Origin: Dickeya dadantii NCPPB 898
Lineage (GTDB): Bacteria; Pseudomonadota; Gammaproteobacteria; Enterobacterales; Enterobacteriaceae
Reading direction: 5' to 3'
Length of the DNA stretch: 32,000 nucleotides
NCBI RefSeq assembly: GCF_000406145.1
Contig: NZ_CM001976.1
Coordinates: 2,741,337-2,773,336, forward strand
A program made the position numbers and the translations under genes. The notes under the pieces are model-generated. The model saw only the letters and a list, made by a program, of their open reading frames with translations. It ran no database searches and had not been told where the DNA came from. Below, piece by piece: positions 20,468 to 27,915 of the stretch; positions within the stretch are counted from its first letter, which is position 1; each line of letters begins with the position of its first letter.

Positions 20468-20782
20468 GTTCTTGTCGACTCCTGCGTCGTGATTATAAGA
20501 AACCATCAGCCAATTTTGCCGCCACGCGGCATAACTCGGCCTAATCCTATTTACCCTACTTCTTTACCCCACTTCTTTACCACATTTTTGCGGTGCGAGC
20601 AGCAACGGCTCACCACCGGTTTTCACCTCTCATGTTTTTACGCACGGTAAGTAACAAATACAATTGTTGTCAGGGAGATAAATTATATGTCCTTATTTTT
20701 CAGCCACTAAAGGCAGTGGGTCGTTGGTCGATTAATGGTTAGGCTGATAAGCAATCAGCGCCATCGCCAACGGGAGTAGATA

Positions 20783-22844: not shown

Positions 22845-23342
22845 TTAGCGATCCTCGATCGAATGCGTCTCGACTTTCTCCGTCAGCGACACTTCAACCT
22901 TAATATCATCCGTCAGGGTCAGCATCGCCTTCTTATCCGGGCCTACCACCGCAGTACGCTGCGGAATGATGAACTGGCGCACGCTCTCGCCCTCAATCAT
23001 ATCTTTGCCGTTTGCAACGCCGTGCCGCGCCGACAGCAGGTAATTCACCATGCCGTTATAGGTAATCTGATAATCACTGCCGGACGACTCAACCCGGTAA
23101 TTTAAGGTGATCTTGGGCAGCGCCGCTTTATAGGTGCCGCGAATCTCATCCCAGCGCGCCGGGTTACCCGTCAGATAGACGGAATCCACCCAGTTGGTAT
23201 TGTTCTGCAGCACATGGGCGGTGGTGTAGGAAAAGTAATAAGGCGAGACAAACGTACTGTTCAGGCTCGTTGTTTTGGTGCTGAACACAGAACATCCTGA
23301 CAGCATCGCCGTGGCCGCCACGGCCAGGAACAGTTTCTTCAT
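22845..23342 (-). CDS. Lipoprotein of unknown function
   Basis: I chose the start at MKKLFLAVAATAMLSGC (lipobox LSGC), giving 165 aa. The upstream extension in the track has no support. I do not recognise a family. Confidence 0.6.
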   Translation of the reverse strand: MKKLFLAVAATAMLSGCSVFSTKTTSLNSTFVSPYYFSYTTAHVLQNNTNWVDSVYLTGNPARWDEIRGTYKAALPKITLNYRVESSGSDYQITYNGMVNYLLSARHGVANGKDMIEGESVRQFIIPQRTAVVGPDKKAMLTLTDDIKVEVSLTEKVETHSIEDR

Positions 23343-23747
23343 CGGTATTTTTCTCTTTTTGCCAACAGTTTCACCCCAAACAGGGGCCGGGCCAGTTTTC
23401 CTGTCATGACCTGCCGGACAGCGCACACGCAGGCAACGGATTGCGCCCACAGAATAGCAGTGATCCTGCGGGTTGATGGAGTGAAAAAGGGGCAAGTGGA
23501 GGGATATTTATCCGCATCGACCACCACCGGCCGGTGCCTGAAATCCATCAGCCTGTTTGCTGAGCCATCACCCAACACGCCTGAATAGTTTAATCAGCCA
23601 CGCACGATAATATAACGCCATCGTTCTTCTGCATGACGCTGAAATATACCCGACTTCAGTTCGTAATAACGCTGAAGCGGCCTCCCATTCATCCCGTTGG
23701 CGTTAATTTTCATGATTGACGTCAACTAATATTGTTATTAAACGCCT

Positions 23748-25832
23748 ATGAAAAAAAATAACACCACCCGGAAACAACTCGTCGTCGTGATAAAAAAAAC
23801 ACGCTCTTTTGCGAAGAAAACAGAAATAACGACCCAATCCCGTCAAAATACCACAGCCGCCAACAACACGGCAGCGAATTACCCCAACGCCCCGTCGTCA
23901 GCCGGGTTGGATAATATCCGTTTTTCCGCACCGGAACCCGGCCAGTCCGGCGCGCCTGCGACTGCCGCCAGCCAGCCGACGCCACCGGCCGCACCGCCGG
24001 TGACAACCGTTCCGCCACTGCCAAAATTTAACCCGCCGCGCGCTGAAACGACCACACCGCCGTCCGCGCCGCCGGCACAACCATCAACATCCAGCGCGCC
24101 GCAACCCAGCCTGCCGTCTCCGGCACCGGCACCAGTTGCCGCCGCTCCCGCAGCGGAACCCCCGGCAACCCAGGAACCGGCCACGCCGCCGTTTGCACCT
24201 GACTATGCAGCAGTTGGAAATCAGCTAAGCAAGCTGATGTCCGGCATGGCGGCGCCGCTGTCGCGGCTGGCGGGAAGCTTTCAGAGTTTTGCTCATGCCA
24301 CAAATCAAGCACTACTGAATCCAGCCCAATCTGTTGCGCCTAAAACAGAACCTAAACCTGTTACACCTACGCCCACCCCAGCAAAACCTATATCGTTACC
24401 AACCGCACCCGCCCAGAAAATCAGTGTGCCGGTTCCAGCAGGTAAAACAGGGACAGTTCAGCGAGCTCTCGCAACAGGTGCTGCGTATAAACAAGGTGAT
24501 ATTGCCGGTTTAGACGATGCCCACACCCGAGCATTGGTGGCCTCTACCGCAGCCACAGAAAGTGCTGGTGGTAAATTAGATATACGCAACTCCGCCGGAT
24601 ATCTCGGTCGTTATCAGGCTGGTGCGAGTTGGCTAGCTGACGCCGGGTTGATTGCAGGCGGTGCAAATGCCGTTATCGCCGCCATGAAAGCGGACGGATT
24701 CACCAATGAGTATAAATGGGGAAAATCCGGCGGTATGACTCGCTTTCTGAAGAATAAAAATAACTGGAAGAATGGACTGGACTATGACAAATACCTATCC
24801 AGTGCCGAAGTACAGGATACCGCATTTAAGACCAACTCAGACAAAGCATATAAACAATTGCTTAAAGAAGGAACTATTAAGCCGAATATGAGCCAGGACG
24901 AAATCGCTGGCATTCTCAAAGCACGGCATATTGGAGGAATTGGCGGAGCCAGAAAAGCAGCTAAGGGTATCGAAGGAGCCAAAGATGCTAATGGTACTTC
25001 AGCACTGAAGTATAAGAATGATTTAGCAGCTGGTAATGTGTTTATTGAGAGCTACCAGTCAGAAACACCAATAAAAAAAGATAACATCAACTCACTTTCA
25101 AATAAAGACACCATTCCACAAAAAGAGTTTAAACAAAAAAAATACAATTACACACTAGATGATGCTTTTGAAAAACAAATAGCCGTCAGCAAGGAAGAAA
25201 AATTTAAACTTACCATAGGGAATAAAAAAATTGCCACTAGAGATGAGGTAAGAGATTATATGAACCCACAAAAAAACATGGGTAATGATGAAATATATCA
25301 ATTTCTGGATTTATCTGCACCAGCGGGTTTATCTGAAAGTGCCATAGAGAAGACCCTAGAGGGACAAGGGGTATTATCAGGAAAAGCAGCAATATTTATT
25401 AAAGCTGCCAAGAAATATGGAATAAATGAAGCATATCTTGTCGCTCATGCAATATTAGAATCAGGACATGGCAATTCAGCTTTTGCCAAAGGACTTCACT
25501 CATACAATGGCAGAAAAATTTACAACATGTTCGGAATAAATGTTGATACTAATAAACCGGAGAATGGCATAAAACGTGCTTATGATCAAGGATGGTTTTC
25601 AGTAGATGAAGCAATTGATGGTGGTGCAAGATGGATTGCTAACTCTTACATTCACAATAAAAGCGAACAAAACACTCTATATAAAATGAGATGGAACCCC
25701 TCCAACCCAGCAACTCACCAATATGCAACAGATATAAAATGGGCAAAATCACAAGCTGGAAAGATAAGGGAATTAATAGAGAAAATCCCTGGCGCAAAAT
25801 TAAAATTTGAAATACCAGAATATAAGAAATAG
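23748..25832 (+). CDS. Large leaderless peptidoglycan hydrolase: Pro/Ala/Thr-rich N-terminal region, SLT/GH23-like segment and C-terminal GH73 N-acetylglucosaminidase module
   Basis: 694 aa with no signal peptide or TM segment. Residues ~60-235 are P/A/T-rich low complexity. The mid region carries ..AATES(E271)AGG..AGYLGRYQAG..ARHIGGIGGA. The C-terminus carries AYLVAHAILES(E571)GHGNS..YNMFGI..LYKMRWNP..HQYATDIKWA, which are GH73 hallmarks. Confidence 0.75.
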   Translation: MKKNNTTRKQLVVVIKKTRSFAKKTEITTQSRQNTTAANNTAANYPNAPSSAGLDNIRFSAPEPGQSGAPATAASQPTPPAAPPVTTVPPLPKFNPPRAETTTPPSAPPAQPSTSSAPQPSLPSPAPAPVAAAPAAEPPATQEPATPPFAPDYAAVGNQLSKLMSGMAAPLSRLAGSFQSFAHATNQALLNPAQSVAPKTEPKPVTPTPTPAKPISLPTAPAQKISVPVPAGKTGTVQRALATGAAYKQGDIAGLDDAHTRALVASTAATESAGGKLDIRNSAGYLGRYQAGASWLADAGLIAGGANAVIAAMKADGFTNEYKWGKSGGMTRFLKNKNNWKNGLDYDKYLSSAEVQDTAFKTNSDKAYKQLLKEGTIKPNMSQDEIAGILKARHIGGIGGARKAAKGIEGAKDANGTSALKYKNDLAAGNVFIESYQSETPIKKDNINSLSNKDTIPQKEFKQKKYNYTLDDAFEKQIAVSKEEKFKLTIGNKKIATRDEVRDYMNPQKNMGNDEIYQFLDLSAPAGLSESAIEKTLEGQGVLSGKAAIFIKAAKKYGINEAYLVAHAILESGHGNSAFAKGLHSYNGRKIYNMFGINVDTNKPENGIKRAYDQGWFSVDEAIDGGARWIANSYIHNKSEQNTLYKMRWNPSNPATHQYATDIKWAKSQAGKIRELIEKIPGAKLKFEIPEYKK

Positions 25833-25854
25833 GGGGTAATTATTGTTCCAGCCT

Positions 25855-25985
25855 ATGTACCCAGATAATCTGGATTGCAAGAAGGCAATAACATAGCTAA
25901 TCCCCGTGGGCTCACTCAAGTAAGTAATCGGGGTACGCAAGGAAAACCGACAGATCTAAAAATTAAAATATGAAGTATATAATTA
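25855..25985. repeat. ERIC/IRU-like intergenic repeat (diverged copy)
   Basis: The core at 25896-25939 (gctaatccccgtgggctcactcaagtaagtaatcggggtacgca) aligns to the ERIC core GTGAATCCCCAGGAGCTTACATAAGTAAGTGACTGGGGTGAGCG. By hand count, 14/22 and 16/22 positions match the ERIC1R-complement and ERIC2 primer regions. The flank ...gaagtatat resembles the ERIC end. The outer boundaries are approximate. Confidence 0.5.
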
Positions 25986-26038
25986 ACAAGCAAACCACCA
26001 TCAATATAAAATTTACACCTTTTTAAAAACAGTTAATC

Positions 26039-26063
26039 ATCCTCGTTTTGGCGAGGATTTTTT
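26039..26063 (+). terminator. Terminator-like hairpin with a T6 tract abutting the ATG at 26064
   Basis: Stem ATCCTCG (26039-26045) / CGAGGAT (26052-26058) with loop TTTTGG. The right arm's final T starts a T6 run (26058-26063), which is followed immediately by ATG. Confidence 0.5.
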
Positions 26064-26560
26064 ATGAAGAAAAAATTTCACTATTACTACTTTTATTTCC
26101 ACTGACGGAAATGACATCCGCCACTAATACAAATCACGCCGATATCTATCAGCAGTATTATGCCAAAATGGCAGGTAATATTTGTAACAACCTTACTAAC
26201 AAAGACAGCGAGATGGGAATCTATCAGTGTGCGACATTAATGAAAAAAGATGCCGACGCAAAACTCACCACACGTACCAACGAGATTAATCAGGTACTCA
26301 GTAGGTTAAGCGATGATGATGAACATAAAGAGTTGATAAAATACTTCAAGGAAGATCAGTTGCAATGGGAGCGTCACCGTAATAAGCGTTGCAAATTGCG
26401 GGTGACAAATTTAGAACAAGACTCTCCGCAATATATATCTGAAACATTCTTGTGTCAGGCAGTAGATGCCGTTTTCGTGGCCTACATGTCATTCCAGAAA
26501 GCAGAGTATACTATGAATGGCTGGCTACCTGTGAGGCGGCAGAAAACTATCGTCGGATAG
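26048..26560 (+). CDS. DUF1311/LprI-family (lysozyme-inhibitor-like) 4-Cys protein; start uncertain
   Basis: The pattern is C46-x14-C61, KKDADAKL, QLQWERHRNKRC115 and FLC136, which fits the DUF1311 consensus C..t..E...C...ad.eLn...Q..W...r...C....C as I recall it. The track ORF starts at a TTG. The good-looking ATG at 26064 is one base out of frame across an A6 run (26070-26075). AT-rich. Confidence 0.6.
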   Translation: MARIFYEEKISLLLLLFPLTEMTSATNTNHADIYQQYYAKMAGNICNNLTNKDSEMGIYQCATLMKKDADAKLTTRTNEINQVLSRLSDDDEHKELIKYFKEDQLQWERHRNKRCKLRVTNLEQDSPQYISETFLCQAVDAVFVAYMSFQKAEYTMNGWLPVRRQKTIVG

Positions 26561-26710
26561 AAACGCTAAACAGCGAGCCTGGAATGCCGTAAGCCATTTT
26601 TGTCACCCTCGTGTTTATGTGCCGCCAGACTCCCCTGACACGCACTTAATGGTACACTTAGCCCCCAGCAACGCTGGACCACCGGCCCCATGAACACGAG
26701 TTACCGTTAA

Positions 26711-27796: not shown

Positions 27797-27915
27797 AAAA
27801 AAAAGCCGACAAAACGTCGGCATGGTGTGAATTAATTGTGCTATGCAGTAATTCAAAAAAGGAAGTAAGACAATATGGAGCGCAACGCCCATCGCTTGAC
27901 GTTGCATTCACCTGC
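27797..27915 (-). ncRNA. fnrS: FnrS small regulatory RNA (FNR-activated, Hfq-dependent)
   Basis: The reverse strand reads GCAGGTGAATGCAACGTCAAGCGATGGGCGTTGCGCTCCATATTGTCTTACTTCCTTTTTTGAATTACTGCATAGCACAATT..., essentially identical over ~85 nt to E. coli FnrS as I recall it. It ends in the terminator GCCGAC-gttt-GTCGGC plus T8. It lies next to zntB (ydaN), as in E. coli. Confidence 0.85.

Follow-up and report, generated by a model that had tools for sequence, protein, structure and literature searches.

Exchangeable wall-hydrolase domains on a constant disordered N-terminal module: a candidate polymorphic toxin of Dickeya beside decayed LprI genes

When a gene for a cell-wall hydrolase is followed by an open reading frame (ORF) of an inhibitor family, do the two encode an effector and its immunity protein? 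The question is raised by a stretch of 32,000 nucleotides (nt) from Dickeya dadantii NCPPB 898 (contig NZ_CM001976.1; the window hereafter), in which the gene for a 694-amino-acid (aa) protein with two predicted peptidoglycan hydrolase domains is followed on the same strand by a 170-aa ORF of the LprI (DUF1311) family. The first-pass annotation had proposed them as a candidate orphan muralytic effector–immunity pair similar to Tge/Tgi of type VI secretion systems (T6SS). Comparison of the locus across Dickeya suggests a different answer. Although we hold this with some reserve, the 694-aa protein is probably a Dickeya-specific polymorphic toxin with two wall-degrading domains (warheads) that is maintained without adjacent immunity, because it unites a constant handle with interchangeable wall-hydrolase payloads. 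The small ORF reads as the wreck of two genes. Coordinates of all features are given in Table 1.

Loci were surveyed by exact-protein look-ups, and a scan of genome contigs with a profile of the N-terminal (N) module yielded one locus, from D. undicola. Twelve syntenic loci were compared (the window, L001, L002, L003 and L014–L021), in the order mcp, lipoprotein gene, toxin gene, ttcA, zntB. On one N module, at least seven architectures occur at this single syntenic position. The arrangement of the window, a lysozyme-like domain (M) followed by a GH73 glucosaminidase module of the Atl type, is found again in L014, L018, L019 and L020. M is combined with a FlgJ-like GH73 module in L003 (109 bits), with a second, divergent M (M′) in L015 and with a pesticin-like domain (PF16754) in L016. 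A Tae3-like papain-fold amidase is joined to GH73 in L002 and to a pesticin-like domain in L001, while L021 ends in a pesticin-like PF16754 domain behind an uncharacterised middle part and L017 has GH73 alone. No Pfam model detects the amidase (aa ~260–405 of protein P0013 in L002, aa ~270–405 of P0054 in L001), which matches chain A of Protein Data Bank (PDB) entry 4HZ9, the Ralstonia pickettii T6SS effector Tae3 (bioRxiv 10.1101/2024.06.29.601107), at 8e-20 with an aligned Cys/His dyad (Cys in YCARAV, His in GHAAMYDG). The N module is therefore common to alleles with different warheads, and the family has the constant N-terminal region and the variable C-terminal domains, swapped by recombination, by which polymorphic toxins are recognised in the sense of Zhang and Aravind. 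This behaviour across strains lends support to one part of the earlier proposal, that of an antibacterial wall-degrading effector.

The 694-aa gene is intact and under purifying selection, with ratios of nonsynonymous to synonymous divergence (dN/dS) of 0.05–0.36 across all modules; its product is 99% identical to a protein of D. dadantii subsp. dieffenbachiae. When the 694-aa query was compared by BLASTP with 108 homologues taken from a large-database search, three modules with separate histories emerged. Compared with L014, another D. dadantii strain, the window is 93–99% identical in its N and M modules (99% in the M domain alone), whereas its GH73 module shares 57% aa identity at a synonymous divergence (dS) of 1.3; the GC content of the GH73 cassette, from ~25000 onward, is 0.30–0.39, against ~0.56 for the genome. 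From this collapse of identity and the drop in GC, the alignment places a recombination breakpoint at ~aa 441 and points to recent import of the cassette. The DNA that is non-homologous to L014 (5001–7079) runs ~170 bp beyond the toxin stop codon (window 25068–25832).

As to the small ORF, the family assignment made at first sight was right: Pfam LprI (PF07007) matches it at 4.5e-6, with 27.4 bits against a cutoff of 22, over profile positions 1–75 of 106, and intact LprI homologues in Dickeya score 34.7 and 26.1 bits. The ORF and these homologues keep the four-Cys pattern of the lysozyme-inhibitor family to which LprI of Mycobacterium tuberculosis belongs; unlike that protein, the window gene is a pseudogene, and its presence follows no warhead type over the loci. 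Close LprI-1 homologues are found in Dickeya only. L014 and L001 carry two tandem intact LprI genes (148/149 and 145 aa) with clean signal peptides, MKKKLSLLLLLFPLTGMTAA, which is the start of the intact LprI-1 homologue, and MKRNSALLLLLLLPLTVIA. LprI-1 of the window breaks off after ...FLCQAV, where a ~415-bp deletion has fused it out of frame with the 3′ end of LprI-2; the 170-aa ORF closes with 36 residues of out-of-frame LprI-2 sequence, and the C-terminal helix is lost. At the other end, a 1-nt deletion at ~26076–26078, after ATGAAGAAAAAA, puts the original ATG (26064) out of frame and strands it together with the MKKK(L/I)SLLLLLFPL signal peptide. The window has the deletion junction, where CAGGCAGTA abuts GATGCCGTTTTCG, in common with D. 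dadantii L018 and D. solani L019. The frameshift is absent from L019, but its ATG has changed to AAG independently, and both L018 and L019 have an earlier stop. Because the founding lesion is shared and the secondary lesions are independent, this is a pseudogene and not a sequencing error.

A terminator-like hairpin (RNA fold −14.1 kcal/mol, z = −2.8) and its T6 run lie immediately before the dead ATG. The 3′ arm of the hairpin holds the former Shine–Dalgarno sequence GAGGA, and at this site the intact relatives show a weaker repeat without a T-run. On these alignments, two tandem LprI genes have decayed into the pseudogene remnant that the 170-aa ORF spans, and it provides no functional partner here; the small, probably periplasm-directed protein of the first-pass annotation gives way to an out-of-frame fusion of two genes with a frameshifted start and no usable signal peptide. 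The ORF pair shows that a toxin beside an inhibitor-family gene can be a toxin beside a pseudogene.

The proposed pairing also implied that the two genes would occur together in other genomes, which for the most part they do not. Over the 12 loci, LprI genes are intact at two, wrecked at three and absent from seven, and the gap to ttcA at the seven LprI-free loci, 175–325 bp, holds no ORF. The two intact pairs are ~91–95% identical to each other, yet accompany different warheads (Tae3-like plus pesticin-like in L001, M plus GH73 in L014), and each warhead type is also found without LprI; hence, the LprI genes do not track any toxin domain. A covariation of LprI with lysozyme-like warheads (M or pesticin) agreed with the first three loci (L001, L002 and L014) and was ruled out by L015, L016, L003 and L020, which have such warheads and no LprI. 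With no adjacent, co-inherited, intact immunity gene, no T6SS gene in the window and no known delivery domain, an effector–immunity pair of the Tge/Tgi kind is not what this locus presents. For LprI/DUF1311 proteins in hcp islands of Pantoea and beside WHIX effectors, a role in T6SS immunity or as orphan immunity proteins has been proposed (PMC9796082, PMC12135965). The intact Dickeya LprI genes may have a role of this kind, which has no bearing on a functional pair in the window.

Table 1. Features of the toxin locus, in window coordinates
Feature	Coordinates	Strand	Basis
165-aa outer-membrane-type lipoprotein, lipobox LSGCS (Ser at +2), divergent neighbour	22845..23342	-	backbone gene
Dickeya-specific island (leader, toxin gene and LprI remnant)	23510..26633		blastn against D. 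lacustris L024
Conserved 5′ leader/promoter region of the toxin gene	23555..23747	+	alignment of 12 Dickeya loci
694-aa polymorphic, predicted muralytic protein, intact gene	23748..25832	+	ORF call
N module, aa 1–233, intrinsically disordered	23748..24446	+	full-length AlphaFold2, pLDDT ~27
M domain, aa 234–440, predicted lysozyme-like phage baseplate-hub/tail lysozyme module	24447..25067	+	AlphaFold2, Foldseek, PHROG
GH73 N-acetylglucosaminidase module, aa 459–694, Atl/SagB/staphylococcal phage tail-hydrolase type	25122..25829	+	PF01832
Terminator-like hairpin (8-bp stem, 4-nt loop, 26039–26058) and T6	26039..26063	+	pattern scan, RNA fold
170-aa ORF, spans two LprI remnants	26048..26560	+	mechanical ORF, opens at TTG inside the hairpin
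LprI-1 (DUF1311) remnant, codons to ...FLCQAV	26064..26464	+	DNA alignment with L014, L001, L018, L019
LprI-2 3′ remnant, original stop 26590–26592	26465..26592	+	DNA alignment with L014, L001, L018, L019

The second warhead of the window is a GH73 glucosaminidase. Pfam PF01832 matches aa 548–675 at 5.7e-15 (56.5 bits against a cutoff of 30.2), as expected from the GH73 module noted at first reading, and the module aligns end to end with the staphylococcal enzymes Atl of Staphylococcus aureus (6fxo, 1.5e-45), SagB (6u0o, 2.4e-38) and AtlE of Staphylococcus epidermidis (4pi7, 2.5e-37); the NCBIfam SagB model matches it at 9.6e-52. The FlgJ equivalog TIGR02541 scores 26.9 bits against a cutoff of 193, and no Rod-binding Pfam match was found, so the impression that the module reads more like Firmicute autolysins than like FlgJ holds. 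Alignment to solved enzymes assigns the catalytic role to E571 (codon 25458–25460): AHAILESGHG, which contains it in ILESG, aligns with SHALLETGNG of Atl 6fxo, and HQYATDIKWA with HQYATDVDWA. PHROG 759, 'tail associated cell-wall hydrolase', matches at 2.1e-57, and among the phage records matched by tblastn, 301 of 323 belong to Staphylococcus phages, at ~42% identity to the tail hydrolase domain of the 80alpha/phi11 type. The C-terminal 235 aa thus resemble staphylococcal Atl/SagB and phage LYZ2/GH73 over their whole length, with the catalytic Glu and YATD conserved. Unlike those hydrolases, the Dickeya protein belongs to a Gram-negative plant pathogen, has no SH3b, GW or CHAP partners and no signal peptide, and has its GH73 module fused to a lysozyme domain of proteobacterial-phage type.

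The M domain had been described as SLT/GH23-like, a claim that the predicted fold bears out in part and the sequence does not. Neither the single sequence nor a 25-sequence profile gave a Pfam, NCBIfam or PDB sequence match; no SLT-family Pfam match appeared among the 25 members of the M family at E ≤ 10, and the nearest named Pfam family, PF06737 ('Transglycosylase-like'), was reached by one member at E = 7.4. A PDB profile search with M returned 0 matches and hhalign against Escherichia coli MltE found nothing (E 0.25 over 14 columns). We therefore rejected a sequence-level link between M and GH23. An AlphaFold2 model built from the family alignment has a predicted local distance difference test (pLDDT) score of 94.3, and its top Foldseek matches in the PDB are all GH23 proteins (MltE, phiKZ gp144, MltC, Campylobacter Slt and goose-type lysozyme), with modest scores (probability 1.0, E 0.02, template modelling score, TM, 0.44–0.50). 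Against the predicted viral structures of BFVD, the model matches gp5-OB/baseplate-hub tail lysozymes considerably better (E 5.5e-8, TM 0.68), with phage SLT and LT_GEWL proteins at lower rank, and PHROG 27932, 'baseplate hub subunit and tail lysozyme', matches the domain at 2.8e-13. The Glu-motif geometry read earlier is present in the model: an invariant T-E-S, which contains the putative catalytic E271 (codon 24558–24560), lies at the C-terminal end of model helix 28–43 and is followed by the invariant GRYQ. Judging from the model, M is best described as a putative lysozyme-like domain with a remote GH23 fold rather than as a demonstrated member of GH23.

M is not confined to Dickeya. Domains 55–77% identical to it are present in ~80 proteins from Azotobacter, Variovorax, Polaromonas and metagenomes. 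On viral contigs, it lies inside ~900-aa proteins resembling tape measures or tail lysins, encoded between portal/tube and baseplate genes, and in Xanthomonas phage Rb1 it is part of a 948-aa protein of the structural region. In P0104 (aa 8–194) and P0105 (aa 6–198), M is N-terminal and joined to PG_binding_1 and to an XVIPCD (PF20410) at the C-terminus; P0104 has NlpC/P60 and CHAP as well. XVIPCD is the signal of bacteria-killing type IV secretion system effectors of the Xanthomonadales; these fusions therefore suggest that M also serves as a warhead of antibacterial effectors of that type. M appears to be a phage tail lysozyme family of wide distribution for which Pfam and NCBIfam have no entry. 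The phage and prophage-like carriers are Gly-rich, tape-measure-like proteins of 600–1100 aa with M near the C-terminus (P0022, P0040, P0062 and P0088; L004–L013; L022 5024–7870), and their C-termini share a conserved ...D(R)xIAHVxTGG(L/M)G motif.

The part that all alleles share is the N module. It comprises a basic N-terminus (MKKNNTTRKQLVVVIKKTRSFAKKTEI, net charge +8), a Pro/Ala-rich spacer and the conserved motif PPFAPDYAAVGNQLSKLMSGMAAPLSRLAG; residues 61–150 are 77% P/A/T/S, in line with the low complexity described before. The maximum Kyte–Doolittle score of a 15-mer at the N-terminus is 0.21, no signal peptide or transmembrane segment was seen, in agreement with the reported lack of a Sec, Tat or lipoprotein leader, and the 694-aa protein contains no cysteine. 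In the family alignment, variable Pro-rich spacers lie between short invariant motifs. The first of these is a very basic 27-mer at the N-terminus, whose short QL(V/F)VVI core is beta-prone; PPLPKF and an amphipathic PPFAPDY...LSRLAG segment follow. Despite its disorder, the N module is coding and constrained: dN/dS is 0.19–0.36 and every gap in the codon-based protein alignment comprises whole codons. A profile search of 1.84 billion representative proteins matched only the Dickeya family (six representatives), the carriers being Dickeya proteins at this locus and one strain labelled 'Erwinia sp. AG740' with identical synteny. No Pfam match to a MIX, FIX, PIX, WHIX, VgrG or PAAR-type delivery domain was found in the module; PIX and WHIX are described as folded, whereas the N module is disordered. 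The full-length AlphaFold2 model has a mean pLDDT of 50 and shows no contacts between the unstructured N module and the enzyme domains, so there is no evidence that the module is an autoinhibitory pro-region.

Several GenBank gene calls of the family start at residue ~162–167 (MSGMAAPL...), as in L016 (3518–5560) and in P0008, P0012 and P0016–P0019. The N module of L016 lies intact, and in frame, upstream of the called start, and the late starts probably reflect annotation truncation in a GC-rich, Pro-rich region; spurious antisense ORFs called in the N-module region point in the same direction. Small minus-strand ORFs called 5′ of the toxin gene in some genomes (76–124 aa) were discarded, their translations being antisense or GC-rich junk.

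Upstream of the gene lies an unusually constant leader, in which 135 of 192 columns are invariant over the 12 Dickeya loci and identity stays at 85–89% even where coding dS exceeds 1. It contains a palindrome (23696–23726) and a weak sigma-28-like match, AATAGTTT-N11-CACGATAA (23584–23610). No LexA box, hrp box or Rfam family was found in it; the window as a whole holds no hrp box, in accord with the first reading, which saw none upstream of the gene. The sigma-28-like match has 6/8 + 6/8 positions and a poor TAAA core, and 25% of shuffles give one such match per window; we considered it too weak to serve as regulatory evidence. The neighbouring chemoreceptor gene has a comparable imperfect motif. 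A sigma-28-like TAAAGGCA-N11-GTCGATTA, read by eye, lies on the plus strand (20700–20740), 5′ of the gene for a 654-aa chemoreceptor.

Leader, toxin gene and LprI remnant form an island of ~3.1 kb, inserted between a backbone lipoprotein gene and ttcA. In a blastn comparison of the window with D. lacustris L024, homology stops at 23509 and resumes at 26634; there, the lipoprotein gene abuts ttcA and the leader–toxin–LprI stretch is missing. Because of this absence, the island is dispensable.

Among the closest described systems are the WHIX 'double-blade' effectors (PLoS Biol 2025, PMC12135965), which with Tae17 represent an established class of dual peptidoglycan-hydrolase toxins. WHIX subclass II is likewise polymorphic, with two peptidoglycan domains drawn from a pool of Tae3-like, NlpC/P60, pesticin-like, N-acetylglucosaminidase and lysozyme-like domains, and its flanking genes sometimes encode DUF1311/LprI proteins with signal peptides, as at the Dickeya locus (PMC12135965). 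In contrast to WHIX effectors, the Dickeya protein has no WHxxxH motif and no room for the ~450-aa bipartite fold; its constant part is N-terminal disorder instead of a central folded module, both warheads are C-terminal and most loci lack immunity. The bifunctional T6SS effectors Tae17 and Tse4 of Acinetobacter baumannii (lytic transglycosylase plus amidase/endopeptidase) also combine a GH23-like domain with a second hydrolase in one polypeptide, but they are encoded with VgrG and immunity genes and delivered in a T6SS-dependent manner, unlike the window locus. Their second domain is an amidase, where the window has GH73 and sister alleles a Tae3-like amidase.

Pesticin and the pectocins, from Yersinia and Pectobacterium, are leaderless and modular as well, their uptake region being N-terminal and their lysozyme-like domain C-terminal, and sister Dickeya alleles share the PF16754 domain with pesticin. 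They differ from the Dickeya protein, which has no FyuA-binding or ferredoxin-type receptor domain, no obligatory Pim-type immunity and ~230 aa of Pro-rich disorder. Of the features of colicins, a disordered N-terminus and cytotoxic domains are present, whereas a receptor domain, a lysis gene and a LexA box in the leader are absent and immunity is mostly absent. FlgJ, the flagellar rod cap with a GH73 muramidase, also has a disordered N-terminal half followed by GH73 and is itself exported without a Sec signal; unlike FlgJ, the Dickeya protein lacks a Rod-binding domain, lies outside the flagellar operon and has an additional lysozyme domain.

If the protein is a polymorphic toxin, the N module would act as its constant delivery handle and the payload would be a pair of peptidoglycan hydrolases, here a baseplate-hub-type lysozyme (E271) and a staphylococcal-type GH73 (E571). 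Payloads would be exchanged between strains by recombination at domain boundaries, and the low-GC GH73 cassette of the window would be a recently imported one. The unfolded chain may exit the cell by a Sec-independent pathway for which the N module is the recognition signal, after which the two enzymes may cleave the glycan strands in the walls of competitors, each at a different bond. The adjacent LprI ORF would be the decayed leftover of a tandem periplasmic inhibitor-family pair that is kept in some strains only. A toxin kept without adjacent immunity would imply one of three situations: the periplasm of kin is not reached, protection lies elsewhere or self-exposure is blocked at delivery. 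In the first of these, the protein might be released to the medium and act on exposed Gram-positive walls. Both warheads of the window are enzyme types that attack walls from outside, as in phage tail lysins.

Several points weigh against the toxin reading. Classical polymorphic toxins carry their cognate immunity gene immediately downstream, and its absence would be unusual if kin are reached; here, ten of the 12 variants have either no such gene (seven) or a wrecked one (three) directly downstream. Genes for secretion systems, holins and lysis are all absent from the window, and no export route emerges from it. The N module has no match to a known delivery domain, with neither a WHxxxH motif nor a Pfam match, and the catalytic role of E271 is deduced from a remote fold match in a model, hhalign against MltE being negative. 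Literature searches found no characterisation of the Dickeya 694-aa protein family, the sole trace being an entry in the table of a genome paper that lists a pesticin allele as a 'putative cytoplasmic protein' (PMC6329079).

The alternatives differ mainly in how they account for delivery and for the missing immunity. As T6SS cargo, the protein would load onto VgrG, Hcp or PAAR through its N module or a linker motif, its hydrolases would be injected into the periplasm of Gram-negative neighbours and LprI would be cognate or orphan immunity. The payload pool (Tae3-like amidase, pesticin-like muramidase, glucosaminidase, lytic-transglycosylase-like) is T6SS-typical, the two-warhead layout recurs in Tae17 and the WHIX subclass II effectors, such a role has been put forward for LprI/DUF1311 proteins that carry signal peptides (PMC9796082, PMC12135965) and orphan, degraded immunity genes are common in islands of this kind. 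But the scan of the window found no vgrG, hcp, PAAR or adaptor gene and no Rhs, CdiB, holin or type III secretion system (T3SS) gene, bearing out the first reading. The N module is fully disordered and without WHxxxH, in contrast to folded PIX/WHIX; immunity is essential when firing at kin, yet 10 of 12 loci lack an intact candidate; and T6SS content is reported to vary widely among Dickeya species (PMC10319131), whereas the toxin family is present in every plant-associated species sampled. We consider T6SS delivery unlikely. The missing immunity would be explained if the protein were exported to the medium through a type III apparatus, flagellar or Hrp, and acted there as a lysin against Gram-positives with exposed walls, or as a bacteriocin like the carocins, with no immunity needed. 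A long, disordered, cysteine-free N-terminus suits transport as an unfolded chain, the natively unfolded N-terminus followed by GH73 recalls FlgJ (one allele, L003, has a FlgJ-like GH73), the GH73 domain of the window is of staphylococcal type and the Pectobacterium carocins S1 and S3 were reported to be exported via the flagellar T3SS (PMC2744703, PMC8672553). The conserved sigma-28-like leader element and the adjoining chemoreceptor genes would fit, were the match not as common in shuffled sequence as described above. Since the hrp box, the Rod-binding domain, a FlgJ equivalog score near the cutoff and an adjacent gene for a known T3SS chaperone are all missing, and the periplasmic LprI genes kept in some strains are left unexplained, we think type III export improbable.

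A periplasmic target accounts better for the LprI-type proteins, which would be in the right compartment for immunity if the protein were a colicin- or pesticin-like bacteriocin. The N module would then be a translocation domain that works through an outer-membrane receptor and TonB/Tol, with QL(V/F)VVI as a TonB-box-like strand. Consistent with this are the leaderless, cysteine-free chain, the disordered N-terminus with invariant motifs between Pro-rich spacers, the pesticin-like warhead of sister alleles and the modular bacteriocins of soft-rot relatives (PMC3302902). However, the stretch from the N module to the warheads shows no recognisable receptor-binding domain, the residues on either side of the putative TonB box are basic instead of acidic or polar, and the lysis gene and the LexA box of the leader are wanting. 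To our knowledge, every characterised wall-targeting bacteriocin has an immunity gene (pesticin/Pim, colicin M/Cmi), against the two of 12 loci with an intact candidate here; we rate this origin as quite improbable. Lack of immunity is no obstacle if the enzyme is a housekeeping or self-directed autolysin, or a domesticated relic of a phage tail lysin, employed in own-wall remodelling, machine insertion or programmed lysis. Most Dickeya species have this chromosomal locus fixed, its regulatory leader is highly conserved, and both catalytic domains come from phage tail lysins, which are themselves mosaic. Still, a leaderless enzyme needs a holin or an export system, of which none is nearby, and endolysins show nothing comparable to a disordered handle of 230 aa. 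Nor is it usual for a housekeeping hydrolase to alternate, at a single locus in one genus, among four unrelated catalytic folds, and this swapping, together with the dispensability of the island in D. lacustris, makes an autolysin or phage relic the least likely of the explanations.

Two-warhead polymorphic wall toxins have been recognised only recently (WHIX effectors, Tae17) and are tied to T6SS delivery domains and cognate immunity. If the toxin reading is right, the Dickeya family would draw on the same warhead pool, but with a disordered handle restricted to the genus and usually without an adjacent immunity gene. A bolder form of it, to which we give little credence, is that the N module is a new genus-restricted delivery signal that deploys interchangeable hydrolase pairs without cognate immunity. 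The unfolded chain would pass through a flagellar or other type III-like channel into rotting plant tissue and lyse Gram-positive or outer-membrane-damaged competitors, and the decaying LprI genes would be leftovers of an earlier, periplasm-exposed lifestyle. For an important group of crop pathogens, such a handle would mean a novel route of export or uptake, and it would represent an 'immunity-free' class of polymorphic toxins, at odds with the rule that toxins of this kind travel with immunity.

The surroundings of the island are backbone. The divergent 165-aa lipoprotein is present at all loci, belongs to no Pfam family and is found in Dickeya only, at 78–96% identity; a PHROG match to 'Cor' spans its signal peptide only. 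It was rejected as a general immunity or export partner, as D. lacustris keeps the lipoprotein gene and lacks the whole island, and for the same reason we count the gene as backbone. The remaining backbone genes around the locus include a two-component system, lactate utilisation genes, hrpA, ydbH, ldhA, two chemoreceptor genes, ttcA, zntB and the gene of an ATP-binding cassette (ABC) binding protein. Between ttcA and zntB, the small RNA FnrS is encoded on the minus strand (27801–27915; Rfam RF01796 at 123.9 bits, with a gathering score of 60).

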